From an uncultured Ectothiorhodospiraceae bacterium (GTDB lineage Bacteria; Pseudomonadota; Gammaproteobacteria; CAYFSA01), in assembly GCA_964345605.1 (NCBI GenBank), contig CAYFSA010000001.1, forward strand, positions 14,521-78,520: a stretch of DNA of 64,000 bases, given 5' to 3'. Positions 8,121 through 31,268 of the stretch are shown piece after piece. A model generated the notes under the pieces. The model did not search any database, was not told where the DNA came from, and was given only the letters and a program-made list of their open reading frames with translations. Position 1 is the stretch's first letter. Each line of letters begins with the position of its first letter. The position numbers were made by a program, and so were the translations under genes.

Positions 8121-9230
8121 TCAGGTGCCGGTATTACGCCAGCGAATCGTGAATTCAACTCGATAATGAGCCTGGGTTTGCGAAATTTTCAGGGGATCGG
8201 TATCGCCGTAAGCAAGCGTCAAGCGTTCCCGTACATTATCCTGGGCAATCTGGCTGCCACGCTTACTTCCCAAACGCTTTGCACCAGGCAATGGGTTGGT
8301 GACGGCAATCGCCACACCGGCGTTTTCGCACCTCACCTCCACGGTAACAGTGCCCCCCCCAGTCGCCGGCTCGATGCCATGGTAAATAGCATTCTCGACC
8401 AACGGTTGCAAAATCAACGCCGGCACCTCGATCGCCAGGGGTACCTCCGGATCCTCACGCCAATCCACGGTCAACCGCTGACCCAGGCGCAATGACTCGA
8501 TGTTCAAATAGCGCCGGGTTATGTCCAGTTCATTGGCCAATTTGACGTGATCTTGCTGCGCCAGCGCCACGCGAAACAGATCCGCCAAATCTTCCACCGC
8601 CTGCTCGGCCCACTGTGGTGAGCTGCGCGTCAAGCTCGCGATGGTATTCATCGAATTGAACAAAAAATGCGGCCGAATCCGGGCCTGGAGGGCCTCAATA
8701 CGCATCTGGGCCGCGGTTTTGAGCGGTTGCCGGGCGCGCTGATAGACCGCGAGCAAATAGCCGGCAAGCAAGGCTACCAACATGGCGACGGCCAGATTAC
8801 GTAGGACGAAACCTAGTTCATTGGCCACCGCCCCGGCAGTGCTTGGCCCAAACGGCCAGGCCAGCACAATGACCGAGCCCAGGATCGTTACCGCAGCTAC
8901 ACAAACCAGGCCGACCGCATAGGTATAACCGGGACGCAGCTGGTTGACATAGCCTCGCAGCAGACATAGCAAACCAACCACGATCCAGGTTACCACTTGC
9001 ACGAAAGCCGAGACGGCCAGCCCGTGTGCCAGCCAGTTCGCCGTTGTCACACCGGGCGCCAAGACCAGCAGCAAGGCCAGGACTTCAGCTAACAGCAGGA
9101 TCATCAGCCCATGTCGCCACCGGCAAGCAATGGCATGCCAACGCTTGTCCGAACGCTCATCTTTAACCATGAGGTCTACCTTGCTCCCTTGCTTGCCCGA
9201 TTCCGGAAACGCACAGACAAAATGATACAC
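8121..9230 (-). CDS. LytS/AlgZ(FimS)-type sensor histidine kinase (non-canonical His_kinase/HATPase)
   Basis: Multiple N-terminal TM helices, then a LytS-type His-kinase region ([15 protein letters not shown]) and an ATPase region. Start uncertain (9230 or 9170). Divergent from argH. Confidence 0.75.
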
Positions 9231-9266
9231 TGGCGATTTGCCAGTCGTGTACAGGTTTCAATAGTC

Positions 9267-10664
9267 ATGAGCAACCAAGCCAACAAATCCTGGGGAGGGC
9301 GTTTCGCCGAGCCCACCGACGCCTTTGTGGAAGCCTTTACCGCCTCTATCGGCTTCGATCATCGCCTGGCCCAGCTAGACTTGGCCGGCTCCCGCGCCCA
9401 CGCCCGGATGCTGATGCAAACGGGTATTCTGGGCCAGGCCGACGGCGAGCTCATTCTGACAGGCCTCGATGCCCTGGAACAGGACTTAGCCGCCGGCAAG
9501 CTCAGCTGGTCGGTGGCCGCGGAAGATATTCACATGAATCTGGAAGCCCAGCTCATCGACCGCATCGGCGAAGCGGGCAAACGGCTGCACACGGCACGCT
9601 CGCGCAATGACCAAGTCGCCACCGACCTGCGCCTGTATACCCGCGAGGCCATCGATCATCTGGAAACCGAGCTGCGCCGCCTGCAAACCGGCCTTTTGGA
9701 TCTCGCCGATGCTGAGGCCGAGACTATCATGCCGGGCTTTACCCATTTGCAGGCCGCCCAACCCGTCACCTTCGGGCATCACATGCTGGCCTGGCTGGAA
9801 ATGCTCGAGCGTGACCGTGAACGCCTGCTGGATGCCCGCAAACGGGTCAACACCCTACCCCTCGGCGCGGCCGCCCTGGCCGGCACCGGCTTTCCCATCG
9901 ACCGCCAGTACACCACTGAGCTATTAGGTTTCGAGCGGCCGGCGGCGAATTCCCTGGATGCCGTCAGCGATCGCGATTTCGCCCTAGAAGTCAATGCCGC
10001 GGGCGCCATCCTAATGGTGCATTTATCGCGTTTCGCCGAGGAATTGATTCTCTGGAATGCCACCCCATTCGGCTTCGTGCAATTACCCGATCGCTTCTGC
10101 ACCGGGTCTTCCATCATGCCGCAAAAGAAAAACCCCGATGTCCCGGAACTGATCCGTGGCAAAGCCGGCCGGGTCTTCGGCCATCTCATGGGCCTGCTGA
10201 CTCTGATGAAGGCCCAGCCGCTGGCCTATAACAAGGACAATCAGGAGGACAAGGAACCCCTGTTCGATACCCTCGACACCCTCACCGACAGCCTGCGGGC
10301 TTTTGCCGATCTTATCCCGCACTTGCGCGTCGACCGCGAGCGCATGCACGCAGCCGCCCGCGCTGGTTATGCCACGGCCACCGACCTGGCCGATTATCTG
10401 GTACGCAAAGGCATGGCCTTTCGCGATGCCCATGCCGCCGTCGGCCAGGCCGTGCAGCACGGCCTGGCGCAGGGCCTGGACCTCGCCGAGATGGACTTAC
10501 AAACCTTGCAAGGCTTCGCGGCCTGTATCGAAGCCGATGTCTATGACATATTAACGGTGGAGGGCTCGGTGGCCAGCCGTGACCATGTCGGCGGCACCGC
10601 GCCGGCGCAAGTGCGCCGGCAAATTGAGTATCATCGCAAGCGCCTGGCAAGGTTGGCGCAATGA
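9267..10664 (+). CDS. argH: argininosuccinate lyase
   Basis: [28 protein letters not shown]... and fumarate-lyase signatures. Start reassigned to the ATG at 9267; the ORF-track Met is 156 nt upstream and overlaps the kinase gene. Confidence 0.95.
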
Positions 10665-10700
10665 CTTGGCATTGCCATGCTTATTGGGTGATTCTAACGC

Positions 10701-10768
10701 AATGGGCGGGCTGAAGCCCGCCCTACTAGTTGGCGACCGACCGGTCGACTCTACTCACTCTCGCATCG
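10701..10768. repeat. hairpin-containing repeat A (GGGCGGGCTGAAGCCCGCCC-TACTAG-TGG... second palindrome ...CTACTC.CTCTCG); imperfect direct copy of repeat B at 14199..14273
   Basis: A 14-mer, gcccgccctactag, is identical to one at 14211..14224. Flanking similarity extends the match to ~70 bp. Contains a perfect 8-bp GC stem with a 4-nt loop. Confidence 0.6.
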
Positions 10769-11044
10769 CCTCAGCCAGGCCTTGACTTGTTCCGGGTCTA
10801 ATCGTTTAAGCAGCTCCTCCGGATCAAGCCCCTTCAGCCGCTCCTCCGCCGGCAGTTCATCCAAAAACGCCTGGCGCTCCTCCGGGGTCATGTTGTGCAG
10901 TAGCTGTTGATGCGTCTCGCGGATGAAGTCTGCCATCGTGTACGACATCGCCGGGTCCTCCAGGTGATAAGTCAGGTAAAGCTGCTGCAGCAATGCCCGG
11001 GAGCCCGGCCGGTGCCATTGGCGGATGCGTGCTTCGCGGTTCAT
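10751..11044 (-). CDS. hypothetical small protein (97 aa); last codons (..CESE*) are encoded by repeat A
   Basis: ORF with repeated LxPEE/LDPE motifs reminiscent of C-terminal regions of transposase-associated (Rpn/DUF4351-like) proteins. No firm family assignment. Confidence 0.35.
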   Translation of the reverse strand: MNREARIRQWHRPGSRALLQQLYLTYHLEDPAMSYTMADFIRETHQQLLHNMTPEERQAFLDELPAEERLKGLDPEELLKRLDPEQVKAWLRRCESE

Positions 11045-11240
11045 GGACGCTGTTGCCCCGGTTTGGCCTACAGGGTTTGCTCATCATCCCTGGCTGTATC
11101 GACAAGTTATGCCGCGGCTCCCCGGGCGCGGCGCACCCCGTCTGCCTTACCTCGCGACGCAGGATAACGCAAAGCTAACGTGCTGGGTGGAGCGAAGCGG
11201 AACCCAGTCGCGTTGAGCGCCATGTTAGAGTCACCGATGT

Positions 11241-11468
11241 TCATAGAAGCTCCAAAAATCCTTCAACGGAAAGGCGCGCCTGTTTCAGGATATGCGAAAG
11301 CGTAGATCGCTTAATCGGGCGGTGCGCCGGCACCGTAAGTTTCAGCACCTCGTCGCGAGTATGCTCATGAAGCCGGATATGGCTGCCACGTTGCCTAACC
11401 ACTACCCATCCATCTCGCTTCAAAGCAGTGATGACCTGCTCGTAGGCGAGGCTTGGAACCTTGCTCAT
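11241..11468 (-). CDS. hicA: HicA-family toxin (YcfA-like mRNA interferase)
   Basis: 75 aa. ...VVRQRGSHIRLHEHTR...LKLTVPAHRPIKRSTLSHILKQA is a typical HicA signature. A 4-nt overlap with upstream hicB. Confidence 0.8.
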   Translation of the reverse strand: MSKVPSLAYEQVITALKRDGWVVVRQRGSHIRLHEHTRDEVLKLTVPAHRPIKRSTLSHILKQARLSVEGFLELL

Positions 11469-11680
11469 ACAGCCACTTCTGTAATCTCGGAATCCGGCCC
11501 ATAAGCCGCGTCGTCTTCGACGGTCTCCAAGTACAGTTCGACGGCCTCCCTAATATTTTGTAGAGCCTCGTCTTTGCTATCTCCTTCGCTAATGCATCCC
11601 GGTAGGCTGGGAACGTACGCGGTGTACCCACCTTCCTCACTGGGCTCAAGAACAACTGCTAGCTTCATATCAATCTCCAC
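11465..11680 (-). CDS. hicB: HicB-family antitoxin (UPF0150)
   Basis: 71 aa. KLAVVLEPSEEGGYTAYVPSLPGCISEGDSKDEALQNIREAVELYLE is a typical HicB N-domain. Confidence 0.75.
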   Translation of the reverse strand: MEIDMKLAVVLEPSEEGGYTAYVPSLPGCISEGDSKDEALQNIREAVELYLETVEDDAAYGPDSEITEVAV

Positions 11681-11859
11681 AATTCTCTAATCTCAAAGAC
11701 TCTAACATCTAAGCATTTATCTGCCGTGCGCAGCATGGCGGATAAATGTCTGTTGAACTGAGCCGCCCCGACTGGGGGCACCCGCCGGGTGGTCTTCTCT
11801 TCAAGGGGGAAAGTATCCGGCGCCCCTGGGGCGCCTCGCACCGGACGGCGCGAGCCAGG

Positions 11860-12477
11860 TCATATCTGAGCCTTCCTTGAGCAGCCACTACCGGTCTCCT
11901 TGAAGCAGGCCGTGAGTTCGTTCCCCGGATACTGCACGAGCTCTACTTGAATTCCAACCGATGGCCCGCAAGTGACCGCGCCTCGCTCTGCGGGCGGTCT
12001 GCACACGTTCCGCCAATCGCTTCCAGCTACGGCGGCCGTTGTCAATGGCCAGGATACGGCCATTGTGGATGGCGCTGCGGTGCGTATAGCGCGAGAGGTA
12101 ACGCCCTGGCACAGCGGGCAGTGGCGATCCCGGCAACTGTAATACCAGGTTTGTTCCTTGTGACAGTGACCGCAGTGGAGCACCTGACCGCCCATCGCCT
12201 CGGTCCGACAGGACAGCAAGTGGCTGCTCACCTGCAAATACAAAAAGCGAATCCCGTTCAGATGAAGTCGACAACTGGTTGGAGACAACCCACGGCCCAG
12301 GACGAGATACCGAAAATACGCCTCCAGCTCTTCTACACTCAGATCATCCGGGGAACGGCCGTAGTGGCGGGCCAGTCGCTCCACCGCATGCAGGTAGCTG
12401 CCATGGGTACGGGGGGCAAAACCACGAAGCCGCATCGCCTCGATCATGGACTGCCGTAGCGGGCTCATCGTCGTCAC
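11860..12477 (-). pseudogene. remnant of a mobile element: phage-integrase N-terminal SAM-like domain fused in frame to the zinc-binding N-terminus of an IS91-family transposase; catalytic parts absent
   Basis: Residues 1-85 (EELEAYFRYLV...SCRLHLNGIRFLY) look like an integrase SAM-like domain. HCGHCHKEQTWYYSCRDRHCPLCQG matches the IS91-type transposase Zn-ribbon. The rest of the ORF is low-complexity read-through, and no HUH/tyrosine catalytic region follows. Confidence 0.55.
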
Positions 12478-12714
12478 TCCTCTGGTGAACGGCCACCATT
12501 GGCCTTATCCAGAGTCTCGACGATGGGAAGCGGAATGCAGGGTAATCGAAGCCAAATAAGCGAGCTACCGCGAAGCGGTTTAGTTCAACGCCGCTCAGCA
12601 CGCGCGGCTACGGAATGGAGGCGAAGCCGCAATGTAGTAGGCGTCGCCGTGCCTGGCCTTGTTAGGGCCTTGGAATCGGGATAGCATAATTGCATCGCCA
12701 CTCGCGGAGGCACC

Positions 12715-12951
12715 ATGACTACCGAAACATTAGAGCACCTACGCTCTCAGATTTCGACTCTCTCCGAGTCGGAACGCGCAGCGTTGGCTCGCGAACTCAT
12801 CATGAGCCTGGACGGCCCCCGTGACGACTCGGTCGAGCAAGCCTGGAACGATGAAATTGTTCGCCGTGTATCCAAGGTCAAAAGCGGAAAGGCCACGCTG
12901 CTCAGCCGCGAAGAATTCCGATCAAAGATGCGAGCGAGGTTAGGCCAGTAA
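12715..12951 (+). CDS. addiction-module antitoxin (ParD/RelB-like putative addiction module component)
   Basis: 78-aa protein. Its stop abuts the start of a ParE-like toxin gene 3 nt downstream. Confidence 0.65.
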   Translation: MTTETLEHLRSQISTLSESERAALARELIMSLDGPRDDSVEQAWNDEIVRRVSKVKSGKATLLSREEFRSKMRARLGQ

Positions 12952-12953
12952 CA

Positions 12954-13268
12954 GTGCGAACGGTAAGGATACTGGAAGAAGCCTCGCAGGAAGCGATAGA
13001 GGCAGCAGCATGGTACGAATTTGAGCAGGCTGGACTTGGAGCTGAGTTTTTCGCTGCCGTTGATGCCGCCATCGACGTTATTGAAGAAAACTTCATCCCC
13101 TTGTCACCTCTCCCCGATGAAGCTCGCGACACCGGTGCAAAACGCCTTATTCTGGAGCGCTTCCCCTACGATATAGTTGCGATTGAGTTGCCGGAAGAAG
13201 CGGTCGTAATCGCCATTGCCCACCACTCTCGTAAGCCCGGCTATTGGCTGGGACGTGGTAACTCCTAG
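12954..13268 (+). CDS. ParE/RelE-family toxin (plasmid stabilisation system protein)
   Basis: 104 aa. ...AIDVIEENFIPLSP...RLILERFPYDIVAIE...VVIAIAHHSRKPGYW matches the ParE/RelE fold consensus. Confidence 0.7.
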   Translation: MRTVRILEEASQEAIEAAAWYEFEQAGLGAEFFAAVDAAIDVIEENFIPLSPLPDEARDTGAKRLILERFPYDIVAIELPEEAVVIAIAHHSRKPGYWLGRGNS

Positions 13269-13405
13269 CCAGCATAAACGGCGCCCGACTAGGGCGTCCG
13301 GTGGAGGCCCTTCGGGCCGGAACGAATTTAATACATTTGTTAAGCATTGATTTTCCAGAGCACGCCCTAAGTACAATAACAAACGCTAGAAAGGACAACC
13401 GCTCA

Positions 13406-13579
13406 ATGAAAAATTTTTTAGAAGACCTAGCTGGATTGAGCGTTTCGAAGCTGTACCAGCACTTCAGGATGCGCGACCACCCCTACGGCCTACAGGATTC
13501 TCTGTCTACGCTTAACCTGTCTTGTTCGCACCTCCGTGCTCCGCCACAGGTCCAAGACTCGATACGTGTAGGTGGCTAA
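13406..13579 (+). CDS. small hypothetical ORF (57 aa) in an AT-rich pocket
   Basis: Good SD (AAAGGA) 10 nt upstream of the ATG. Local AT-rich composition unlike the surrounding sequence. No recognisable family. Confidence 0.3.
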   Translation: MKNFLEDLAGLSVSKLYQHFRMRDHPYGLQDSLSTLNLSCSHLRAPPQVQDSIRVGG

Positions 13580-13690
13580 CCCTTACCCGGCAGGGACTTT
13601 CACCCCGCAAGATACGCCGAGCTTTGCTCGGCGCGATAACGCCAAGCTCAGTCGAGCGAGACCGAAACCGGCTTCGGCTGGAGCAGTTCG

Positions 13691-14160
13691 TTAGAGAGCT
13701 TTCCTCATCGCCAAGTCACAACGGTCTGAGAGATGGCTCGGCGTGAACTCCATGAACCCGTACTTCCTGTAGAGCGCCAAGGCTTCTTTAAGACATGAAT
13801 TCGTCTCAAGCGTCATCTCCACAAACCCTAAACTCTTTGCGACAGCGATGGCATCGTCCATCATCGTCTTCCCCAAGCCTCGCCCTTTGAGTTCGGGTAG
13901 CAAGTACATCTTGCGCAATTCACAGGAATGACTTGTCGTTGGGAATATCCCGCAAGATCCGACAACCCGGCCGTCGCATTCGAGAATCCTGAACGCTCCG
14001 CCGTTCGACAATTACGATGCTTGGATGTTACGGATGTCTGCATCGGTTTCTTCAGGATTGGTGCTTAGCCCATATCCGGCAAGTACCCGGCAAGAGCCTC
14101 CTTCAGAATCCAGAACACGTCCTCTTCATCGTCTGGGCGGTAGTCGCGAAGTTGACACAT
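13691..14160 (-). pseudogene. GNAT-family N-acetyltransferase disrupted by frameshifts
   Basis: The C-terminal 106-aa ORF carries GNAT motif A (RGLGKTMMDDAI) and the YRKYGF motif. A GNAT-like N-terminus (MCQLRDYRPDDEEDVFWILKEAL) is encoded from 14160 in another frame and is followed by stops. Confidence 0.55.
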
Positions 14161-14230: not shown

Positions 14231-14273
14231 AGCTGTGGGTCGATTGAAATCGACCCTACTCCTCGCTCTCGGT
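14199..14273. repeat. hairpin-containing repeat B (GGCGGACTAAAGCCCGCC-CTACTAG-ATGG...GGGTCGATTGAAATCGACCC-TACTCCTCGCTCTCGG); direct copy of repeat A
   Basis: See repeat A. Overlaps the last codons (..TESEE*) of the dynamin-like gene. On the minus strand the first hairpin is followed by TTTATTATTTTTATT, so it doubles as a terminator. Confidence 0.6.
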
Positions 14274-15731
14274 TTGAGCACCAGCCAAGGTGCTCGGGTG
14301 GCTCGTGCCGGAAGGATTGGTAAACTGGTCGTTCAGCCGCTGAACATAGCGATCGGCGGTATCTCGCACAGATTTCAGGATGAGGCGTGAGCGCTTGCTC
14401 CAGCCCCAGGGATTGCGTCGCCACATGGGCCGCCAGAATTCGGTATTCTTGCGGAATGCAGCCACCAGATTGCCGGGCAATTTATCATCCTGCAGGGTAG
14501 CCGCCACTTTGTCCGCCATCAAGTTGCGGAATAGAAAATGAATACCGGCCAGCACCACGACCAGGGCGACCCCTAGGCCGATAGCAAGATTCGGCTGCGA
14601 GCCCAAGCCTTGCACGAAGCCGGCGATCTCCCCAAGGCCCCAGCCATAGTTGATAGCAACCCCACCAAAGACGAGCAAGATCGCCAAGACAGTCAGCCCG
14701 TCACCCGTCAGAGTAAGCTGCCGCCAACGCCGTAAGGCTTGCTGCAAACGCGGCACAACGGCAAATTCAATCTGCTCGCCGATATGGCTTAGCGTACCGA
14801 CGATACGGTAGACACGCTGCACGCCGACATCAGCAATGCGACTGTAAATCAGCTCCATGTCGTGATCACGTTTGCTGCGGAAACGCTCCCGCAGGCTCGC
14901 ATCTTCGATCGGCACCGCTGCCGTATCGCTATAAACGGCATAAAAGCGGCCGGCACTCAAACCATGCTTAGCCAGAGCCCGATGCCAGGCAGCCAGGACA
15001 TCCTCGGCGTTATCCTCGCGGGCAGTCGTGTCGATCTGGTTGAGTACAAACTGGAATTTGCCGAAATCGCCACGGTGATAGACGTTGGCGACCAGATGCT
15101 TAAGGGTATCCTGCATGGCGCCGGGCTCGGGACGGCGGGCATCGAACAGGACCAGCACCAGGTCCGATAAGTCCATGATATAGTCGGTAATACGCAGGGT
15201 CGAATCGCGCTGCTCATCAGCATCAAAGCCCGGCGAGTCGATAATGATCTTGCCACGCAAATGCTCGGCCCTGCAGGTCTTCATCTGGGTGTAGGTGTCG
15301 ACCCGCATGCCCTCACCCGGTGCGACATGCTCAATTTCGTCGGCAATTTGATAAAACGGAAAGCGCGGATCAGAATCCAGGGCCCGGCCAGGCAATTCGT
15401 GCACCTGATCATCCTGGCTAAAACAAATAACAGTGAATTTGTCATCCACCGCTTGGTTACCCGTATCCTGCAGTTTCTTGCCGAGGAAATCATTGATGAA
15501 CGTGGATTTGCCTGCCGAATAAGTACCTAGGACGGTAATGAGCGGCCACCAGGAAATTTTCGTGGCAAAGGACTCGTCAGTTTCCAACAGGCCGAGCTTG
15601 TAGGCAACCCGATCAAGCTCACGAAATTCTTTGGCTGCCTCGACCAGGATGGGATTTTCCAATTGCAGATGCTCGGTCAGGGCATCGAGTCTGAGCTGTA
15701 ACACGCTATTGGCTTGTGACATGCTATTCAC
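14256..15731 (-). CDS. dynamin-family large GTPase with C-terminal membrane hairpin (bacterial dynamin-like protein, LeoB-like)
   Basis: G1 GTYSAGKST, G3 DSPG and G4 NQID motifs. Two hydrophobic helices near residues 340-400. Its start overlaps the stop of the upstream gene by 4 nt. Confidence 0.75.
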   Translation of the reverse strand: MNSMSQANSVLQLRLDALTEHLQLENPILVEAAKEFRELDRVAYKLGLLETDESFATKISWWPLITVLGTYSAGKSTFINDFLGKKLQDTGNQAVDDKFTVICFSQDDQVHELPGRALDSDPRFPFYQIADEIEHVAPGEGMRVDTYTQMKTCRAEHLRGKIIIDSPGFDADEQRDSTLRITDYIMDLSDLVLVLFDARRPEPGAMQDTLKHLVANVYHRGDFGKFQFVLNQIDTTAREDNAEDVLAAWHRALAKHGLSAGRFYAVYSDTAAVPIEDASLRERFRSKRDHDMELIYSRIADVGVQRVYRIVGTLSHIGEQIEFAVVPRLQQALRRWRQLTLTGDGLTVLAILLVFGGVAINYGWGLGEIAGFVQGLGSQPNLAIGLGVALVVVLAGIHFLFRNLMADKVAATLQDDKLPGNLVAAFRKNTEFWRPMWRRNPWGWSKRSRLILKSVRDTADRYVQRLNDQFTNPSGTSHPSTLAGAQTESEE

Positions 15732-16528
15732 CTTGAGTTCGTTATAGTTGGCGAGACACCGTTGCGCGGCTGCGCCGGCCAGGAATCCGCTTGAGGTTGC
15801 TGATTGGCGTTTTGTTCAGCTGCTTGATAGGCCTGTTGCAAAGCCGACATCACCGGCGAAATTGGCACCACCCCAGCTGCCTCGAGCGCGCGTACCAATT
15901 CCCCCGCTTCCCAGCCACGGCCCTGAGCGACCAACCGCGTGGCCGCTTCGGCGTAGGTCTCGGCGGCGTTGTCATAGGCCCCCATAAGGGTATAAAAATT
16001 GCCAAGTTCGCCGACCACATCCGGATCATGCGCCAAGCGCTGCGCCAAGGTTACATAAGCACGCTCCGCGCATTGATGCCGTCCCTGCCAAACGCAAGTC
16101 CGAGCCTGGCGCCACAAACGCCGGATAGCCTCATTTTTTTGGCTAGGCCGTGGCGTCTGTGGGCGCTCAGTGTACGCGGCTGTTCCCATTGGCTGAGACG
16201 TCCGTTGCTGCTCCTGGCGAATCGCCTCTTGCTCGCGCCATTGCTGCCAAGCTTCGCGGCTTGCAGCCTCAGCCGCGGCTTGCGGGGGCTCGGGCTGCCC
16301 TGCTTGCGTCCCGGCGGGCCGCTGCAGCGATGCATCCGAGCCTGGCTCGGACGCCGGCACCTCTGCTTCGTCGCCTTCCACGGCGCGAATCTGATGCAAA
16401 TTGCGCGGGGCCTGGGCTTGAACCGGGTCGGCAAGCGCGAGCAGACCAAACGCCATAACCCCTACACAAACTGCGATACTGTTAGACTGCCCTGAAGTCA
16501 CAGGAAAGTTGTAAGCAATGGATCGCAT
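15728..16528 (-). CDS. secreted protein with Q/A/E-rich coiled-coil region and C-terminal TPR-like helical domain; co-operonic partner of the dynamin-like GTPase
   Basis: Start chosen at the ATG (16528) that gives a signal peptide, MRSIAY...IAVCVGVMAFGLLALADPVQA. The track's longer ORF begins with GTG at 16600. Translationally coupled to the GTPase gene. Confidence 0.5.
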   Translation of the reverse strand: MRSIAYNFPVTSGQSNSIAVCVGVMAFGLLALADPVQAQAPRNLHQIRAVEGDEAEVPASEPGSDASLQRPAGTQAGQPEPPQAAAEAASREAWQQWREQEAIRQEQQRTSQPMGTAAYTERPQTPRPSQKNEAIRRLWRQARTCVWQGRHQCAERAYVTLAQRLAHDPDVVGELGNFYTLMGAYDNAAETYAEAATRLVAQGRGWEAGELVRALEAAGVVPISPVMSALQQAYQAAEQNANQQPQADSWPAQPRNGVSPTITNSR

Positions 16529-16753: not shown

Positions 16754-16909
16754 TTATTGTGCATGCCCATGCACCGCCTCGGCTTCGCTATGCGCGGGCT
16801 TGTTGCCGAGCCAGCTATCAAGATTATCGCGCGCGACCCAGCCATACACCGCAGCGCTCACAATCAGGACGAGCACCAAATGGCGCAATATCCAATAAAC
16901 AACAGGCAT
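16754..16909 (-). CDS. possible small single-TM protein (51 aa)
   Basis: MPVVYWILRHLVLVLIVSAAVYGWV... with a GGGGG SD about 8 nt upstream. Lies between the ParA gene and the TPR/dynamin genes on the same strand. Weak call. Confidence 0.25.
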   Translation of the reverse strand: MPVVYWILRHLVLVLIVSAAVYGWVARDNLDSWLGNKPAHSEAEAVHGHAQ

Positions 16910-16938: not shown

Positions 16939-17571
16939 TTATTTGACGAATAGATGCGAATATAAAATCATGCTCAAGCGCATGACCTCGCTATGCGCTG
17001 GACCCTGCGGCTCCAACTCAAAGGCAGCCAGCCCTTCGCTGAAGGCCTCGCGATAGACCGGCCGGTCACACCAGATAGCATCAATGACGTGGACGCTTTT
17101 AAGCTGTTGCAGCGCGGCGCGCGCCTCGGCATTTTCCGGAGCAGCCGGATCAGGATTGGCGCGATTGATAAAGCACAGGTGCTCTGGGGCGCGACTGCCG
17201 AGATTGGCTTCGCGGACAATACTGATAAACCGCTGTAACGACCAAATATCAGCCTGGCTCGGCGGCACCGGCGTCACAACCCGATCGGCCATATTTAAAG
17301 CCAAGCGCAATGCTGGCATATCCGAAGTACCGACATCCACCAAGACTTCCCTGGCGGTTGTTCTGCTCAATTTAACCGCTTGGCGCTCGACTGCCATGGC
17401 AGGCTGGTGGCCTTCCTCCCGGCGGATATCGATCAAATCAGCGAGCGTGGCTTGGGGATCCAGATCGAATAATTGCAGCGGCTGCTGCTGAGCTGCCAGA
17501 TAGGCTGCGATATTGAAAGCTACGGTGCTTTTGCCCGTACCCCCTTTAAGGTTACCGAATACGGTAATCAT
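16939..17571 (-). CDS. orphan ParA/MinD-family P-loop ATPase (no parB nearby)
   Basis: Deviant Walker A, MITVFGNLKGGTGKST. About 210 aa with no N-terminal extension. Start set at the ATG at 17571. Confidence 0.85.
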   Translation of the reverse strand: MITVFGNLKGGTGKSTVAFNIAAYLAAQQQPLQLFDLDPQATLADLIDIRREEGHQPAMAVERQAVKLSRTTAREVLVDVGTSDMPALRLALNMADRVVTPVPPSQADIWSLQRFISIVREANLGSRAPEHLCFINRANPDPAAPENAEARAALQQLKSVHVIDAIWCDRPVYREAFSEGLAAFELEPQGPAHSEVMRLSMILYSHLFVK

Positions 17572-17643
17572 GCAAACAATTCGATTTCTGCGCTCCCCCT
17601 TTGACAAACCGCACATCCCTGTGCAGTGGCAGATTTCAGGCGA

Positions 17644-18042
17644 TTAATAGTCCGCGTTACCGCCGCTGGCTTGGCCGCCACCCTGCTGCGGGGCTTGACC
17701 GGCATAAGGCGCGGGCGCCCCGCCATACGGAGCACCCCGATGAGGTACACCGTAACCGTAGGGCGCATAGCCATAGCCATACGGGCCATAGCCATAGTGA
17801 TCGTAATAATCACCATAACCACGGCCCCAACCGCGACCACTCATATTGAAGTCGAAATCACCAAACATATCACCTAAGCCGTCAGCCCAGCTGTTACTAC
17901 CATAGCCGGGATAGCCGCCCCAGGGGCCACCATAATAGCCAGGATAGCCGCCCCAGGGACCACCCCCCCAGTAGGCGTTTGCCGCACCGGCCGACAGACC
18001 AAGGATTACAGCCAGAGTAATTGCTTTGGTCAGGTTTGTCAT
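17644..18042 (-). CDS. secreted Gly/Tyr/Trp/Pro-rich low-complexity protein (sulfur-globule-protein-like / glycine-rich structural protein)
   Basis: Signal peptide [23 protein letters not shown]. Mature part is rich in [10 protein letters not shown] and [15 protein letters not shown] repeats. SD GGAGG lies upstream of the ATG at 18042. Confidence 0.6.
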
Positions 18043-18144
18043 TGCATCCTCCACTTAAGGAAAATACCCCCGCGGTTAATGACGGCGCATGTGTCGAGGG
18101 CAATCCACACACGCCCGGCAGAACCTCTCAAGCCCATTATGCTA

Positions 18145-21100
18145 TTAATGCTCCAGATCGGCTTTCAAGCGGATACCGCGTTTACCTGATTTCGGTTGGG
18201 TCGCTTGCGAGGACTCGGCGTGAGCCTCGGATGCCGCCGTTTGAGCCGACTTATCTACATAATTGCTCGCTTGCTCAGCTTCTTGTTCAATCGTCGTTGC
18301 CTGCGCAACAGGTGCCGTTGGCGACTTCTCGGCCGCGGCATCTGACGGCTGCGACCAAGCCGATTCCGGCAGCGAGGCACTATCCGGCATGGGTGCCTGG
18401 CCGGTTCGGTGGGTTGCGCTCACGCCACTGCTGCTCGCTTTAGCCGGCTCGGATTGCACAGCCAAAGTTTGCTCGCCCTGGGACAGCGGAGACGGCTGGG
18501 CTGCAGTGCTGGCGGCCTCACCGCTTGCCCCAGACGCCGGCATGGTCTCAGCCGGCTCAATTTGCTTGTCACGCGCGCGGCTCAAGGCCCATACCTGCTT
18601 TACGCCCCAACGCAGCAAATAAAATATACCCTGGGCTATCAGGCCGATATAGATCGCCACAGTCTTGGCCGTGGCGAGTGCGGCGCTGCGTGAGGATTTG
18701 CGTGTTTCACGCCGCGCTGCCGAATCGCCAGGCCCGGAACCGGCCCCATCATCCGGGCCGCTGGGGCCACTCGGACCCGGACCACTGGGCCCATTACCCC
18801 GGCCCTTGCTCAGTAACGGATCGTTCTCGCAGGGCGTCGGCGCCATCTGACTTGCCGGGCCGGCCAAACAGAAAGCATGGCGTACCGAGACGCAGCCTAA
18901 GGGAATAACCAGCAATGTCAACACGGTCGAAACGATGACACCGAACATCAGGGACACTGCCATCCCCTGGAAGATTGGATCGGCCAAGATCACCGCCGAG
19001 CCGCCGACCAGCGCCAGCGCGGTGATGATAATGGGGCGTGTACGCGCCTTGCAGGCCTGGATCACCGCCTCGGACACCGGTTGGCCATGATCCACTTCGT
19101 GCTTGGCAAAATCCACCAATAAGATAGAGTTACGCACAATAATACCTGCCAGGGCGATGAAGCCGATCATTGACGTGGCGGTGAACTCGGCATTAAACAG
19201 CCAGTGCCCCGGAATAATCCCGATCAAAGTAAGCGGAATCGGCGCCATCACCACCATCGGCAGGATAAAGTTACCGAACTGTGCCACCACCAGAATGTAA
19301 ATCAGCACTAAGGCCCCGGCGAAGGCAATGCCCATATCCCGGAAGGTCTCGTAAGTGACCGTCCATTCGCCACCCCATTCGAAGGCAACATTGGCGCTGG
19401 TATAGTCACTGCTCGGCGGTCCCATCCAGCCGGTTTTGACCGGCTCGCCCGTGGGTGACTCATAGTCTTCGAGCATCTTTTCGACTTCAAGCATGCCATA
19501 AACCGGGGCGGCCAGGCGTCCGGCGGTTTCCGCCGTGACATACTCCAGCGGCCGCAGATCCTTGTGATAAATGACCGGATCCTGTGGGCGCGGTTTAAAA
19601 TAGCCCAATTCCGCCAAGGGGACGGTATCGCCCCGCGCTCGCCCGCCAGCGGTTTGGCCTCCACCATTGCTCACCTGGGTCGCAACCGGCAGCTGCCCGA
19701 TGCGCGAAAACTCATGGCGTATCGATAGCGGCACTTGCAGGACAATCTCGACCGGATCGACCATGCGGCTTTCGAATTTGACATCACCGAGCTCGTAGCC
19801 TCCCATAGCCATCGCCAAGGTCTCGTTGATATCGGCCACACTCACCCCGATCCGCGACGCCTTCTCACGCTGCACCACAAAGTCATAGACCTGGTATTCC
19901 GCTTGCAGGAAATTGTCCTCGTCCGTCAAGTACTGCGCCTTCTCGAACATCTGCGTCAAATCTTCGGCCACGGCAACGAGCGCCTCACGCGGGCCGTACA
20001 CTTCGGCCACCACCGATTGCAGCACGGGCGGCCCGGGCGGCATTTCGACCACTTCGATCCGGGCTCCGGCGGCCGTGGCAATGGGGGTTAAGCGCTCGCG
20101 CACTTCCACCGCGATCTGGTGACTGGTGCGATCAGGCCGGTCGTGCTTGTCGATCAACTGCACTTGGATATCACCCTGCCAGGGATTCTGACGCAGATAG
20201 TAATGGCGCACCAAACCGTTGAAATTATACGGCGAGGCGGTACCGGCATAGGACTGCAGACTGACGACTTCCGGGATTTCCTGGACTTCTTCGGCCAAGT
20301 CCTGAATCACATTGGCCGTGCGCGGCAGCGCGGTACCCTCAGGCATGTTCAGCATCACCTGGAATTCCGGCTTGTTATCCAACGGCAGCATCTTGACCCG
20401 CACATCGGTCGTATAAAATAGCGATACCGAGGCAAAAAAGGCCACGATGACCGCCAGCAAAAACAGGCTGCCTTTCCAGCGGCTTTTGAGCATCGGCGTA
20501 ATCGAGAAGCGGTACAAGCGCTCGTACATCTCGGCCGACCGATGCTCCTGCGAGGCCATCCGGCCAAGTTTGCGCAGACTCGGTTTGAGCAGCATCGCCA
20601 ACCACGGTGTGAACACGAAGGCGGCAAACAGGGAGAAGGCCATGGCCACCGAGCCTAAGGCGGGAATGGGCATCATGTAGGGGCCCATCATGCCGCTGAC
20701 CATCGCCATCGGCAGCAGGGCCGCAATGACGGTGCCGGTCGCCAGGATAGTCGGATTACCGACCTCATCAACCGCCGCCACTGCCGTGGGGGAATCGATC
20801 TCGCTCTTAATCAGCCAGCGTCGGTAGATATTCTCGACCACCACGATAGCATCGTCGACCAGGATGCCGATGGAGAATATCAAGGCGAATAGACTCACCC
20901 GGTCGATGGTAAAGCCCAACACCCAGGCCGAGAACACGGCGACCAGGATAACGATGGGGATAACGACAAGCACCACCGTGGCCGCACGCCAGCCCAGGAA
21001 GTACCAGACCAGGGCGGTCACGATGAAGGTCGCGATCAGCAGCTTCTTGAGCAGCCCGTTAACCTTTTGCTTAGCGGTCTCACCATAGTTGCGGGTTACA

Positions 21101-22200
21101 TCGACCTTGACGTTATCCGGGATAATCCGTCCCTGCAAACTATTGACCTTGTTAATCACATCCTGGGCGACCACCACGCCATTGCTACCCTTCTTCTTAG
21201 CAATCGCCAGCGTGACCGCCGGTGCCCCATTGGCCGAGGCCTGCTGTTCGGCCTGCTCGCCTTCATGACTATGGCCGCCATGCCCATAGGCCGGACCGGT
21301 ATAATGCCGTACGAGCTGATGCGCTTCCCCCGGGCCAAGATAAACATTGGCGACGTCACGCACATAAATGGGTTGGCCGCGATAGGCACCGATTACCAGG
21401 CTCTCGACATCCTCGGCTGTGCGTAAAAACTCGCCGGTATAAAGCTTGAACGTACTGTCGCCGGATTCCATGCGGCCAAGCCCTCGCTCTTTGTTGGCAG
21501 CACGAATCGTATTGGCCAGCTTATCCATGGAAAGCTCGTAGCCGGCGAGCTTTTCCGGTAACACCTCGATACGCAATTGCTCCTGGCGCCCATGCACCAC
21601 GAAGCCTTTATTGATGTTCGGCAGCTCGTTGGCCCGCTGCATGACCTCCAGGGCAATTTGGTGCAGCGTCGCGTCATCGACCTCCTGCGACCAAAAGGTA
21701 AAGGTCACAATAGGCACGTCATTGATGCCTTTGGGCTTGACCAGCGGCTCCGAGGCACCCGGCGGGATCTTGTCCAGATTCGAGGCCAGCTTGTCGTACA
21801 ACTTAACCAGCGACGGGCCTTTCTCTTCGCCGACATCGAACTGCACGGTCACCAGCGCGCGATCGCGCTCGGAAGCCGAATAGACATGATCGACTCCGGT
21901 CAGCTCGTTCATCATGCGCTCGAGCGGCTCGGTGACCAGGCTGGCGACCTGATCGGAGGACCCCCCTGGATACTTCACGAAGATATCCACCATGGGCACA
22001 GAGATTTGGGGATCTTCCTGCCTTGGCGTCAGGGCAATGCCGATCAAACCAGCGACTAGGCTGGCAATCAGAAACAAAGGTGTCAGCGGTGAACGGATAA
22101 ACGCGCCGGCGACCCGTCCGGCGATGCCCAAAGGAGCATCATCGTTCGTTGACGGGCTCGAGGAGGCGGACTGATGCTCGTTGGAATTATTGTCGCTCAT
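18145..22200 (-). CDS. RND-superfamily efflux permease (AcrB/CzcA-like, 12-TM core) with ~300-aa C-terminal low-complexity extension
   Basis: 1351 aa. The first ~1040 aa have the typical RND architecture. The tail carries a GPSGPGPSGPSGP tract, an extra hydrophobic helix (TVAIYIGLIAQGIFYLLRWGV) and an S/A/Q/E-rich segment. Confidence 0.9.
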   Translation of the reverse strand: MSDNNSNEHQSASSSPSTNDDAPLGIAGRVAGAFIRSPLTPLFLIASLVAGLIGIALTPRQEDPQISVPMVDIFVKYPGGSSDQVASLVTEPLERMMNELTGVDHVYSASERDRALVTVQFDVGEEKGPSLVKLYDKLASNLDKIPPGASEPLVKPKGINDVPIVTFTFWSQEVDDATLHQIALEVMQRANELPNINKGFVVHGRQEQLRIEVLPEKLAGYELSMDKLANTIRAANKERGLGRMESGDSTFKLYTGEFLRTAEDVESLVIGAYRGQPIYVRDVANVYLGPGEAHQLVRHYTGPAYGHGGHSHEGEQAEQQASANGAPAVTLAIAKKKGSNGVVVAQDVINKVNSLQGRIIPDNVKVDVTRNYGETAKQKVNGLLKKLLIATFIVTALVWYFLGWRAATVVLVVIPIVILVAVFSAWVLGFTIDRVSLFALIFSIGILVDDAIVVVENIYRRWLIKSEIDSPTAVAAVDEVGNPTILATGTVIAALLPMAMVSGMMGPYMMPIPALGSVAMAFSLFAAFVFTPWLAMLLKPSLRKLGRMASQEHRSAEMYERLYRFSITPMLKSRWKGSLFLLAVIVAFFASVSLFYTTDVRVKMLPLDNKPEFQVMLNMPEGTALPRTANVIQDLAEEVQEIPEVVSLQSYAGTASPYNFNGLVRHYYLRQNPWQGDIQVQLIDKHDRPDRTSHQIAVEVRERLTPIATAAGARIEVVEMPPGPPVLQSVVAEVYGPREALVAVAEDLTQMFEKAQYLTDEDNFLQAEYQVYDFVVQREKASRIGVSVADINETLAMAMGGYELGDVKFESRMVDPVEIVLQVPLSIRHEFSRIGQLPVATQVSNGGGQTAGGRARGDTVPLAELGYFKPRPQDPVIYHKDLRPLEYVTAETAGRLAAPVYGMLEVEKMLEDYESPTGEPVKTGWMGPPSSDYTSANVAFEWGGEWTVTYETFRDMGIAFAGALVLIYILVVAQFGNFILPMVVMAPIPLTLIGIIPGHWLFNAEFTATSMIGFIALAGIIVRNSILLVDFAKHEVDHGQPVSEAVIQACKARTRPIIITALALVGGSAVILADPIFQGMAVSLMFGVIVSTVLTLLVIPLGCVSVRHAFCLAGPASQMAPTPCENDPLLSKGRGNGPSGPGPSGPSGPDDGAGSGPGDSAARRETRKSSRSAALATAKTVAIYIGLIAQGIFYLLRWGVKQVWALSRARDKQIEPAETMPASGASGEAASTAAQPSPLSQGEQTLAVQSEPAKASSSGVSATHRTGQAPMPDSASLPESAWSQPSDAAAEKSPTAPVAQATTIEQEAEQASNYVDKSAQTAASEAHAESSQATQPKSGKRGIRLKADLEH

Positions 22201-22229: not shown

Positions 22230-23357
22230 TTAAGGCATATACCCCGAGGAGGCCCCCGGCGGCGGATTATCCACGATACGGTCGCCGGGCGACAAACCGG
22301 ACATGACAGCGACCCGATCCGGACCGACCTCGCGGCCGAGCCGAACCACACGTAACTGGGAAGTCCCGTCGGTTACTTTCAGCACACTCGGCAAGCTGCC
22401 TTCGAGAATAGCCGAGTGCGGCACCACCACTTGGGCTGGCCCGCCACGCGCTTGGACCGGCAGAACAATATCGGCATACATACCAGGCCCACCGGGTACG
22501 CCGGCCGGCAAATCGAACTTGACGGTCACGGTATGGCGCTGCGGATCGGCCTGCGGATAAATCTGGGCCACGCGGGCATCAACTGGCGAACGACCGGCAA
22601 CATCCAGAAAAGCCCGCACAATCATCCCGACTTCCAGATTATTAATCAGTCGCGTAGGAATGTCGGCCCGAATCCGCAAATAGTCGACATGGGCAAAGCG
22701 CAGCATGGGTTGGCCGGGCTGCACCGTATCGCCGCGCTCGACCAACTTGTCCATGATCACCCCATCGAATGGCGCGATAGAACGGGCATCGCGCAAGGCC
22801 GCATCGATTTCGGCGATAGTCGAACGGGCTTGCTCAACCTGCGCAGCAGCTTGATTGACCGACGTCCAACGGCCATAAATATTGGCACCACGCTCGACAT
22901 CGGGATCGCCGTAACCGGCCACTTCACCTGCCTGGCGAGTGAACATCTTGTCGAATAGCGAGGGCACACCCATGCCGGGTAACTGCTGGACACTCTCCGT
23001 ACTCGGCGAACGCAGTTCGCGATCATACTGAATCTGCGCATTACGCAAGGCATATTGGGCATTGCGCAGCTTGGCGACGGCCGAGCGCCGGCGCGCGCGC
23101 AAATCGTCTTCGTCAATACTGGCAAGCAGATCACCCGCCTGGAAGCGATCGCCCTCTTCGCCGGCGATCATATCGATACGACCGGGAATCTGCGCGGACA
23201 GGGTCACTTCTTTATAGGGAACGACGGTACCCCCCACCACGACCTGACTCCGGTTCTGGACGGTTTCCACGGTAATAACTCGCGGCTCGGCCGCTTGGCT
23301 TACCGAGGTAAAGAAAAGTGTGAGTAAACAAGCAATATTGAACAAGAGAAAACGCAT
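22230..23357 (-). CDS. RND efflux periplasmic adaptor (membrane fusion protein, HlyD family)
   Basis: Signal/anchor MRFLLFNIACLLTLFFTSVSQA followed by biotinyl-lipoyl, coiled-coil and beta-barrel MFP regions. Lies 30 nt upstream of the RND gene. No outer-membrane factor gene is adjacent. Confidence 0.85.
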   Translation of the reverse strand: MRFLLFNIACLLTLFFTSVSQAAEPRVITVETVQNRSQVVVGGTVVPYKEVTLSAQIPGRIDMIAGEEGDRFQAGDLLASIDEDDLRARRRSAVAKLRNAQYALRNAQIQYDRELRSPSTESVQQLPGMGVPSLFDKMFTRQAGEVAGYGDPDVERGANIYGRWTSVNQAAAQVEQARSTIAEIDAALRDARSIAPFDGVIMDKLVERGDTVQPGQPMLRFAHVDYLRIRADIPTRLINNLEVGMIVRAFLDVAGRSPVDARVAQIYPQADPQRHTVTVKFDLPAGVPGGPGMYADIVLPVQARGGPAQVVVPHSAILEGSLPSVLKVTDGTSQLRVVRLGREVGPDRVAVMSGLSPGDRIVDNPPPGASSGYMP

Positions 23358-23648
23358 ATTGATGGTCTCGGGCTTAGGGCATAACCGTAACTGAAAACGC
23401 CGATCCGAAATGAGATACATCGCCTGACCATCCCTGCCGTCGCGGCACTGATCGATGACAGCAGATTGATCGTTGGCAAATATGGGACGTGATCATATCG
23501 AATCCAAGCCGCCAGGCATACCTCTGGTGAAGAATTCCTGCGAATAATACCCGAGCGCCGCGCGCCACGCACCCGCTTGGCTCCGAGACAAGCCTGCGTT
23601 AGCCTTGCGCAATACTGGCGCTAGCGCGCCGCCTCCCGGACCCAAGCC

Positions 23649-30093: not shown

Positions 30094-30933
30094 TCAATTG
30101 CCGGGCAGCCACCGCTCGAACGAGGCAAAGCTCTGTCCCACCCCCTCGGGGGCCGCCGGGTCATAGTAAAGACTGCGCAGGCGCATCGTGGTGGGCGGCG
30201 CGAGCAGGCTGCCTTCCACCAAACTGCGATAATCGGTGCCGCCCAGCAGCCGATGCACAACGGTGAGATACAGTCGGTCCAGGCACTGATCGGCGAGCAG
30301 CATGTGCATGATTTCCGGGCCGGTCACCGAGTAAATACAGCGGTAACCACGCGTCCCGAGCCTGTCGATCAGGGTTGCACCAGTGACTCGCTCGCCCGGC
30401 TCCTGGATGACAGTAAAGCCTTGGGCTTGTATCTCGGCGACACGCGCGGCCTGAGCCCGAGCACTGGTGAAAAACACGACGTCACGCTGGCCATCGCGCA
30501 TTTCCGCGGGAATCGGACAGTTCAAGCTGGCACTCACCACCGCCAAGGCGGGATAGGCTGACAGCCCCTGATGCACCCGCCAGGCCCGCAGATCGGCAAA
30601 ACTCGGATCGTCGTAAACCGCAATGATCTCCTGCGCCGTCCCCGCAGCACGTTCGCGCAAGTGCCGGCCACTGGTGATGAGCACATCCGCCTGAGCCGCC
30701 AGTTCCTGAAACAAGCGCCAGTCACGCGGATTGGCAATGGCATGGGGCACGGTCTGAGCGCCGTCCGCCCCTGCGGTCACTGAGATCCGCCCGTCCAGAC
30801 TGCAGACATAATTGGTGTAGACAAAGGGGCGTTCGTTTGCACCCGACTGTTGCAGGTCTTCCTGCAAATACAATCGGTCAAGCGCGACTTCCGCAGTCGG
30901 CTGCGGCAACAGACGCAACAAGGGCTCGGTCAT
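30094..30933 (-). CDS. RibD C-terminal domain / dihydrofolate-reductase-fold reductase family protein
   Basis: 279 aa with the RibD_C-like pattern (..YVCSLDGRIS..., ..DVLITSGRHL...). Last gene of a four-gene operon. Confidence 0.65.
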   Translation of the reverse strand: MTEPLLRLLPQPTAEVALDRLYLQEDLQQSGANERPFVYTNYVCSLDGRISVTAGADGAQTVPHAIANPRDWRLFQELAAQADVLITSGRHLRERAAGTAQEIIAVYDDPSFADLRAWRVHQGLSAYPALAVVSASLNCPIPAEMRDGQRDVVFFTSARAQAARVAEIQAQGFTVIQEPGERVTGATLIDRLGTRGYRCIYSVTGPEIMHMLLADQCLDRLYLTVVHRLLGGTDYRSLVEGSLLAPPTTMRLRSLYYDPAAPEGVGQSFASFERWLPGN

Positions 30934-30935
30934 GG

Positions 30936-31268
30936 TCAGTCGTACAACACCTTGGCCATCTCATCGAAGACCTGGGTCACCGAGCCACGCTCATTTTCCA
31001 GTAAACAGACCAAATCACCCAAAACACACACGGACATATCCCGCCCCCGCACGCTCCAGCCACGCGGCGGAGCCCAACCTTGCTGTTGGGTGAACATCGA
31101 CAGCTGATCGGCATTGGCCTGAGTCAGCCGCTGATAATTCTTGGCAAAGCGACACAATTTATGCAGCACCACTTCCTCGAGAAACCCGTAGCCCTCGCCG
31201 CAGCTGCCGTCATCACGAAACTGCACTACCGCCTGGACCCCGTCGAGGGCGAGCAATCGCTTGATCAT
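30936..31268 (-). CDS. small Cys-motif protein, paralogue 1 of a tandem trio (DUF2173-like, uncharacterised)
   Basis: 110 aa. Shares LxGV..V.F, GW and CVLGxLxCxxxN motifs with the two genes upstream. Confidence 0.5.
   Translation of the reverse strand: MIKRLLALDGVQAVVQFRDDGSCGEGYGFLEEVVLHKLCRFAKNYQRLTQANADQLSMFTQQQGWAPPRGWSVRGRDMSVCVLGDLVCLLENERGSVTQVFDEMAKVLYD

Follow-up and report, generated by a model that had tools for sequence, protein, structure and literature searches.

Sulfur globule proteins (Sgps) are Sec-exported structural proteins of ~10.5-13 kDa which form the envelope of the periplasmic sulfur globules of Allochromatium vinosum (PMC10386293; PMC10892978), and nearly every globule-forming proteobacterium, Thioalkalivibrio included, is reported to carry their genes (PMC10386293; PMC10892978). 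SgpA and SgpB of A. vinosum (also called CV1 and CV2; Alvin_1905 and Alvin_0358) are the founding envelope proteins and belong to the Pfam family PF17228. Here, we report the analysis of a 64,000-nucleotide stretch of DNA from an uncultured Ectothiorhodospiraceae bacterium (contig CAYFSA010000001.1; the whole stretch is hereafter called the window) and more particularly of a gene located at 17644..18042 on the minus strand, hereafter sgp, which codes for a 132-aa precursor of the SGP family (PF17228), together with the conserved gene neighbourhood in which it stands. Like SgpA and SgpB, with which it was compared via the family hidden Markov model (HMM) and their published properties, the product of this gene (hereafter Sgp) combines a Sec signal peptide, a mature protein of ~11 kDa and regularly spaced glycine and aromatic residues. 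Unlike them, it comes from a host which is no purple sulfur bacterium and whose nearest relatives are labelled Ectothiorhodospiraceae, it possesses an extra duplicated 11-residue unit, and its acidic tail is rich in Gln and Gly, where an Ala/Pro...K tail is usual. Moreover, unlike other sgp genes, it is located within a cluster coding for an RND-family permease, a ParA ATPase and a dynamin-like protein (DLP), a situation not shared by any of the other genomic sgp loci, 21 of which were examined.

Three further groups of described systems are relevant for comparison. SgpD of A. vinosum (Alvin_2515), a globule-associated protein exported like the present one, is encoded next to a hydrophobe/amphiphile exporter gene (PMC10386293), as sgp of the window adjoins the RND permease gene. 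In addition, the glycine-rich plant cell-wall proteins and the keratin-associated Gly/Tyr proteins have a similar composition and Gly-aromatic spacing, an analogy that has been drawn in the Sgp literature (PMC10386293); this likeness is compositional only, while the core motif and the taxonomic distribution tie Sgp to the bacterial SGP family. Regarding ParA/MinD ATPases, a 2024 review gives as cargos chromosomes, the divisome, carboxysomes, flagella, chemoreceptor arrays and the conjugation machinery or pili (PMC11407121). Like McdA of the McdA/McdB systems and other orphan ParA/MinD cargo positioners, the ParA of the window is small (210 aa), carries a deviant Walker A motif and has no ParB; as in McdA/McdB, a partly disordered, partner-like protein is encoded after it, and the known cargos of such systems include protein organelles (PMC11407121). 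No periplasmic inclusion, RND pump or dynamin-like protein figures among the known cargos, and sulfur, efflux and dynamin are not mentioned in this review (PMC11407121).

Assignment to the sulfur globule protein family

Sequence comparisons support the assignment of the sgp product to the known sulfur globule protein family, of which it is a new member, although in itself an ordinary one. Indeed, the protein matches PF17228 ('Sulphur globule protein') with 32.8 bits for a gathering score of 26.7 (E = 1.3e-7), the match spanning aa 36-120 of the protein and positions 1-88 of the 93 of the profile, and its orthologues in the related loci L006 and L029 reach 44.8 and 40.5 bits, respectively; no NCBIfam model matches it. 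As a control for composition, a profile was built from 16 homologues with the query and its nearest orthologue (L006) omitted. Mature Sgp scores 68.3 bits with this leave-out profile, compared with -24.9 ± 4.5 (maximum -8) for 1000 composition-matched shuffles, and since it stands ~20 standard deviations above them, the similarity is positional and not compositional. A search of 5.8 billion proteins returned 40 matches, 38 of which carry PF17228, and the only source names among the 40 are 'sulfur globule protein CV1' and 'sulfur globule family protein'. Furthermore, an HMM search of 1.84 billion cluster representatives retrieved only 248 members at E <= 1e-3, which indicates that SGP is a small specialised family and not a generic glycine-rich class. 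The sulfur-globule-protein-like identity proposed in the initial annotation is thus borne out by the Pfam score, by the distance from the shuffles and by the names of the relatives. As for the alternative it had left standing, namely generic glycine-rich homologues from non-sulfur bacteria, the opposite was found, the relatives being from sulfur-oxidiser lineages or from unclassified Gammaproteobacteria metagenome-assembled genomes (MAGs).

The homologues share a common architecture consisting of a signal peptide ending in A-x-A and followed by W-W-G-G-G-P-W, a central GD(M/G)(F/Y)GDF(D/N)xNxSGRGxGRG motif, and Y-G / P-Y-G repeats leading to an Ala/Pro tail. In the window protein, the Sec-type signal peptide (17974..18042, minus strand; aa 1-23), delineated by inspection and homologue alignment, comprises one Lys, a hydrophobic stretch of 15 residues and A-N-A, with predicted cleavage between ANA and YW and a mature protein starting with YWGGGPW; all homologues have a signal peptide with which it can be aligned. 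All the peptides quoted in the initial annotation are present, including the LSAGAANA end of the signal, and the mature length estimated at ~110 aa was measured as 109 aa, for a mass of 11.4 kDa and a pI of 4.5. The mature protein contains 25% aromatic residues, mostly spaced 2-5 apart, and 32% Gly. The statement of the initial annotation that the repeats leave 'almost no other residues' was overstated: G (35), Y (19), P (11), A (9) and W (5) together make up 72% of the mature protein, and aa 55-81 are non-repetitive. This core (17800..17880, minus strand) is the signature and the most conserved part of the SGP family, with D58, G61, D62, G71, G73, R74 and G75 as invariant columns, and it supplied the search pattern for the genome scan described below. 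Upstream of the core, a 33-bp tandem duplication (17902..17964, minus strand; 1.9 copies with 93% matches according to Tandem Repeats Finder) encodes the 11-residue unit twice, its second copy being absent in L006 and L029. The tail of the protein is Gln/Gly-rich.

AlphaFold2 gave no confident fold for Sgp (mean pLDDT 48), in line with what is expected of a low-complexity coat protein. It placed one helix in the signal peptide (aa 3-17) and, beyond it, a single low-confidence helix of 8 residues (aa 53-60). Unlike SgpD, a possible coiled-coil protein, Sgp of the window is Gly/Tyr/Pro-rich with only this short helix past its signal peptide. An SgpD-type identity was rejected, AlphaFold2 predicting no coiled coil and the adjacency to an exporter gene being, besides export, the only trait in common; within the tests made, the two proteins fall into different sequence families.

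Distribution of sgp and evidence on sulfur metabolism

The genome scan, which covered one GTDB genome per species, led to the identification of 22 sgp loci. Fourteen of them carry sulfur-oxidiser labels (Ectothiorhodospiraceae MAGs, Thioalkalivibrio including T. versutus AL2, Chromatiaceae, Chromatiales, Sedimenticola and Thiotrichales) and the other 8 are from unclassified Gammaproteobacteria MAGs, with no named non-sulfur bacterium among the 22. The best match is only 50-62% identical, so the species of the window is not among the scanned representatives; the closest relative found is a MAG labelled Ectothiorhodospiraceae. No match named for A. vinosum was obtained in the protein searches, and a tblastn search against plasmids was without match.

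The second-best homologue (P0002, locus L037) belongs to the same MAG (assembly prefix CAZWQC01) as the syntenic orthologue of L006. A single small open reading frame (ORF) separates its gene from that of a type I sulfide:quinone reductase, which lies upstream, and a cytochrome bd oxidase is encoded nearby. This reductase matches the chains of PDB entries 3SZ0 and 3T2Z ('Sulfide-quinone reductase'), the enzyme of Acidithiobacillus ferrooxidans, with E = 4.6e-176. In L037, the reductase gene and this second sgp lie within 8317-10390, and the cytochrome bd oxidase and a Crp-family regulator are encoded just upstream. Judging by its gene content, this region could be a compact sulfide-to-globule locus. 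With the L037 reductase as query, tblastn found no second sulfide:quinone reductase in the 40 retrieved sequences.

Tandem sgp genes occur in Sedimenticola and other gammaproteobacterial MAGs (L016 9923-10561, L019 4470-5162, L023 3559-4296 and L025 9881-10678). There, the second copy has an SGP-like N-terminal domain fused to an Ala/Gln/Glu/Arg-rich, coiled-coil-like extension of 100-150 aa, and such fused copies may represent a hybrid of the SgpA/B and SgpD types.

A conserved neighbourhood around sgp

The initial annotation had found it curious that an exported protein should be encoded next to an orphan ParA, a cytoplasmic ATPase. This puzzlement was justified, as the sgp-ParA pairing is conserved across loci, and gene order argues that the adjacency is not coincidental. 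In the window, the genes of the cluster are all on the minus strand and separated by short gaps. They code, in order, for the periplasmic adaptor (MFP) of the RND pump (22230..23420), the RND-family permease (1351 aa; 18145..22200), Sgp, the ParA/MinD-family ATPase (16939..17571), a 51-aa membrane ORF (16754..16909), a 242-aa TPR-like protein (15728..16456) and the membrane-anchored dynamin-like GTPase (488 aa; 14256..15722).

Among the 22 genomic sgp loci, only L006 has a ParA of the window type (65% identical), with the C-terminus of an RND permease encoded upstream. Four more contexts (L029-L032) were found starting from ParA homologues, and a metagenome scan with an alignment of the transmembrane (TM)-TPR protein of the distant clusters yielded four others (L033-L036), too few for statistics. 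L029 (ParA 67% and DLP 75% identical) has sgp, ParA, a TM ORF, a TPR protein and DLP. L030 and L031 (ParA 53-56%, DLP 55% and RND 62% identical) have successively RND, a Pro-rich secreted protein, a Gly/Tyr-rich secreted protein, an SGP-like protein, ParA, TM-TPR, a DUF302 protein, a TM protein and DLP; no such cluster is present in L032 (ParA 50%). In the loci of the TM-TPR scan, ParA is upstream in 4/4 cases and DLP downstream in 3/4. L033 and L034 (ParA 46-48%) contain MFP, RND, secreted proteins, an SGP-like protein, ParA, TM-TPR and DLP, the copy of the cluster in L035 is truncated, and L036 carries Gly/Trp repeat proteins in the place of the SGP and has no DLP match. A MAG of a lucinid clam (Taylorina sp.) symbiont has MFP, RND, ParA, a TM protein and DLP without sgp. 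Overall, the ParA proteins of the cluster loci are 44-67% identical to that of the window, and the four distant clusters L030, L031, L033 and L034, taken together, show identities of 46-56% for ParA and 52-55% for DLP. The core module is, on this comparison of gene orders, made up of MFP-RND, ParA, one or more membrane proteins and DLP. No published description was found of a conserved efflux pump/ParA/dynamin-like cluster with sgp, nor any report linking sulfur globules with a ParA or dynamin gene cluster, or RND with ParA and dynamin.

Regarding the SGP-like ORFs of the distant clusters, they reach 21.3 bits with the Pfam model or do not match it. They share with Sgp the signal peptide, WGGGPW and the FNxSGRG core, and when compared with 500 shuffles of their own sequences they beat all of them (14.0 versus -25.8 ± 4.5; 1.9 versus -27.6 ± 4.7). 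Other candidate SGP relatives, namely a 185-aa Gly/Tyr protein encoded in L031 and the Gly/Trp repeat proteins found in L036, were rejected, their scores being negative and at most slightly above shuffles. An SGP-type gene stands just 5' of ParA in all 7 loci in which this region is sequenced and an SGP-type gene is present (window, L006, L029, L030, L031, L033 and L034), and it is absent from 2 of the 9 modules overall. These nine loci represent roughly four lineages and are thus not nine independent observations.

Several proteins of the cluster have distinctive features. The RND permease (Pfam ACR_tran, E = 5e-146) carries after TM12 a C-terminal extension of ~250 aa (about 18145-18900), consisting of an extra hydrophobic segment of 26-40 residues and a long disordered tail, Lys-rich in several loci, and ending in KRGIRLKADLEH. 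The tail motif [KR]RGI[RQ][LI]K.D is found in six loci, i.e., in the window and in the RND genes of L006 (36-281), L031 (1-3957), L033 (2226-6086), L036 (1712-5467) and L039 (6064-9936), and it may act as a docking peptide, with ParA as a possible partner. The adaptor protein matches Pfam HlyD_D23 and HlyD_3 and NCBIfam RND_mfp (169.8 for a cut-off of 94.9).

The ParA protein contains the deviant Walker A sequence KGGTGKST (NLKGGTGKST) and matches Pfam CbiA, MipZ and AAA_31, its NCBIfam ParA_partition score of 110 bits being under the cut-off of 180; its only full-length PDB matches are ParF/ParA-type plasmid partition proteins. The true start of parA is at 17571 (MITVFGNLKGGTGKST), 72 nt past the sgp stop codon, as orthologues begin with MITV. 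A 225-aa version starting at ATG 17616 was rejected, this codon lying inside a hairpin and the orthologues beginning with MITV. No ParB-like gene is present in the cluster, and candidate partners of ParA, proposed by inference only, would be the TM-TPR protein or the RND tail motif.

In the distant clusters, the counterpart of the 51-aa ORF is the N-terminal TM helix of the TM-TPR protein, the ORF being 61% identical to the ORF of L029 and 38% to the N-terminus of the L030 TM-TPR protein. The gene is hence split in the window and in L029 into a TM ORF of 51-57 aa and a separate TPR protein, and single in L030 and L031. The TPR-like protein of the window (DPDVVGELGNFYTL) consists of a disordered Pro/Gln/Ala-rich region and a C-terminal TPR-like domain with a sub-threshold Pfam TPR match. 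DLP matches Pfam Dynamin_N (E = 8e-14) and, weakly, EHD4 in the PDB, and its orthologues (52-75% identical) occupy the same position in L029, L030, L031, L033, L034, L035 and L039.

The distant clusters also encode further secreted low-complexity proteins (L030 548-1090, L031 3979-5379, L033 5767-7332 and L036 5451-8356). These contain Pro-rich repeats such as PEWAQPGQRPMPPQR and Gly/Tyr or Gly/Trp/Asn repeats, and many of them have a C-terminal tryptophan (SPFNW, SPFSW, PRYW, GWW, PLW). Moreover, a DUF302 protein (in L030 and L031 only) and a membrane protein of 150-200 aa with the motif MQRD[ML]WSMN, both absent in the window, are encoded in distant clusters in the interval between the TM-TPR/ParA gene and DLP; this region corresponds to 7461-8597 in L031, 3237-4374 in L030, 10284-10760 in L036 and 10695-11297 in L039.

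Proposed role and alternative explanations

The reading that we favour, with a probability of roughly 70%, is that the window encodes a bona fide SGP-family protein which, by homology with SgpA and SgpB of A. vinosum, would coat stored sulfur. The precursor would be exported unfolded via the Sec pathway and cleaved after Ala23, and the 11.4-kDa mature protein would assemble in the periplasm as a thin coat around elemental sulfur derived from sulfide or thiosulfate. Such a coat would keep the hydrophobic sulfur dispersed and accessible.

A first alternative extends this reading and is not exclusive of it. Sgp would then be a dedicated part of the MFP-RND/ParA/TM-TPR/DLP module, and sulfur deposits would be what this module builds, positions, partitions or exports. 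In this scheme, hydrophobic sulfur or polysulfide would be dealt with by the pump, the inner membrane would be reshaped around periplasmic globules by the dynamin-like protein, and ParA would space the globules along the cell via a membrane adaptor or the conserved tail of the pump. Consistent with this proposal, the order RND (C-terminus)-sgp-ParA is kept in L006 and sgp-ParA-TM ORF-TPR-DLP in L029; L030, L031, L033 and L034 have an SGP-like ORF just 5' of ParA that scores above all 500 shuffles; and RND and MFP are upstream wherever the contig extends (L031, L033, L036 and L039). The conservation of the RND tail motif in six loci, the presence of the core in the lucinid clam symbiont MAG, the compact single-strand arrangement and the similar position of sgpD beside a hydrophobe/amphiphile exporter gene in A. 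vinosum (PMC10386293) point in the same direction. Nevertheless, gene order is its sole evidence, and the association with sgp is not constant: L039 has the module without sgp, L036 carries unrelated Gly/Trp repeat proteins instead, L006 is without the TPR protein and DLP, and most genomic sgp loci are without ParA, RND or DLP of the window type. The SGP-like ORFs of the distant clusters, in turn, do not reach the Pfam threshold. In addition, ParA and DLP are cytoplasmic while globules are periplasmic, and polysaccharide-synthesis genes downstream of two clusters hint at a general envelope role. The genes that flank the L033 and L036 clusters code for glycosyltransferases, an AMP-binding enzyme and a TonB receptor, and no sulfur genes are among them. 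We therefore regard a dedicated role of Sgp in this module as tentative and, all in all, rather unlikely. The fuller version of this proposal is to be considered as doubtful. In it, Sgp would be a cargo or a structural component of a so far undescribed envelope module conserved in sulfur-oxidising Gammaproteobacteria, and this module would form, space and partition periplasmic sulfur globules or expel sulfur by linking both a cytoplasmic ParA gradient and dynamin-driven remodelling of the inner membrane to the periplasmic deposit.

According to a second alternative, Sgp would be a generic secreted Gly/Tyr-rich envelope or matrix protein without sulfur-storage role, the Pfam match being due to shared low complexity or the function having diverged in a lineage without internal sulfur storage. 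Several observations weigh against the coat-protein reading itself. The Pfam margin is only 6 bits over threshold for a compositionally biased sequence. No sox, dsr, sqr or fcc gene is present in the 64-kb window or in 6.7 kb further upstream, and the absence of sox and dsr genes from the window, already stated in the initial annotation, held when ORFs of at least 150 aa and 52 small gap ORFs were inspected; with no sulfur-oxidation genes in the window or this flank, we can only infer the sulfur metabolism of the host, with indirect support from the taxonomy of the homologues, the sqr gene beside a paralogue in the MAG of the nearest relative and the microbial-mat origin of one sample. Moreover, Ectothiorhodospiraceae are stated to have no Sgp genes and to deposit sulfur outside the cell (PMC10892978), and the nearest relatives of the window bearing this label, the role of the protein may differ in its lineage. 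No report was found of the experimental localisation of an SGP member outside Chromatiaceae. The generic alternative can also call upon the envelope-related neighbours (RND/MFP) and upon the other secreted low-complexity proteins of the related clusters, which are not SGP-like. Against it stand the positional similarity at ~20 standard deviations above shuffles and a core motif that is non-repetitive, the restriction of the homologues to sulfur-oxidiser lineages or unclassified Gammaproteobacteria MAGs, the tiny size of the family and the paralogue located beside sqr in the nearest relative. A generic envelope protein thus appears improbable, and the assignment of Sgp as a sulfur globule coat protein is the one we retain.

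Gene structure and regulatory signals

The weakest alternative, namely that sgp would be a chance open frame in GC-rich repetitive DNA, where the repeats create other long overlapping ORFs (17568-17840, minus strand; 17601-17849 and 17626-17877, plus strand), is ruled out by the conservation pattern, which includes a signal peptide, a conserved Shine-Dalgarno sequence and ATG, a ratio of non-synonymous to synonymous substitution rates (dN/dS) of 0.12-0.15 with respect to the two closest orthologues (L006 and L029; dS 1.5-1.9, i.e., with synonymous sites saturated), identical protein calls in four metagenomes and a family of hundreds of members. We conclude that sgp is a genuine gene under selective constraint, preceded by a strong ribosome-binding site, and that the repeats account for the overlapping ORFs in other frames.

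The ORF delimited in the initial annotation (17644..18054, given without strand) is present on the minus strand. Its mechanical start is the GTG at 18054, and the likely true start is the ATG at 18042..18040, preferred because the Shine-Dalgarno sequence GGAGGA (18047..18052, minus strand) lies 4 nt upstream and is conserved in orthologues (TGGAGGATG being kept in L006 and L029), and because the 132-aa product is the one called in four metagenomes. This identical product was called on four independent metagenome contigs, one from JGI metagenome 3300012002 (contig Ga0153774_1000011, to which the window belongs) and the others from three other samples; one of the four is a microbial mat. The stop codon is a TAA (17644-17646).

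Two conserved dyads flank the gene. The inverted repeat TGTGTGGATTGCCCTCGACACA (18090..18111, minus strand) lies in the interval that separates the RND gene from sgp, ~50-70 nt 5' of the ATG. Its arms co-vary in L006 and L029, where pairing is kept with changed bases, and it may be an operator or the terminator of the RND gene; a weak sigma-70-like match was found at 18168-18139. Between the sgp stop and the parA start, the stem-loop ACUGCACA-GGGA-UGUGCGGU, followed by UUGU (17608..17627, minus strand), has 8 pairs, 3 of which show compensatory changes among the three sequences available (window, L006 and L029). The z-score of single-sequence folding was not significant for this stem-loop, and a scan for intrinsic terminators gave nothing convincing 3' of sgp. 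The hairpin may serve as a partial terminator or attenuator, or as an mRNA-stabilising element, and sgp is probably a highly expressed first gene of the downstream unit.

Other features of the window

Directly after the DLP gene, where synteny with the related clusters stops, a mobile island (10700-14050) contains an ORF fusing an integrase-SAM domain and an IS91 zinc finger (11860-12477), a HicAB pair, an Unstab_antitox ORF and a truncated GNAT acetyltransferase gene (13691-14011). At about 30900-32050, in an unannotated gap, three small ORFs match Pfam DUF2173 (best E = 6e-31) and form an apparent paralogue triplet. Type VI secretion genes occupy 54085-63904 and code for a DUF4123 protein, VgrG (55353-57539), a TPR/methyltransferase protein, ClpV (60183-62942) and TssG. 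The window also contains housekeeping genes, including hemCDXY, argH, argG, rpoN, lptABC and smpB.

Conclusion

The presence of sgp marks the uncultured host as a probable sulfur-storing oxidiser, and the PF17228 genes found in Thioalkalivibrio and in Ectothiorhodospiraceae-labelled MAGs qualify the published statement that Sgps are absent from this family. Beyond sgp itself, the part worth following is the conserved RND-sgp-ParA-TPR-dynamin neighbourhood. Indeed, published work on periplasmic sulfur globules deals with coat proteins only, and this cluster offers testable candidates for the nucleation, sizing, positioning and inheritance of the globules. It also suggests a possible new class of cargo for ParA/MinD ATPases and, if the module were indeed to act on sulfur globules, this would be the first case of a ParA/MinD system with an extracytoplasmic inclusion as its target.

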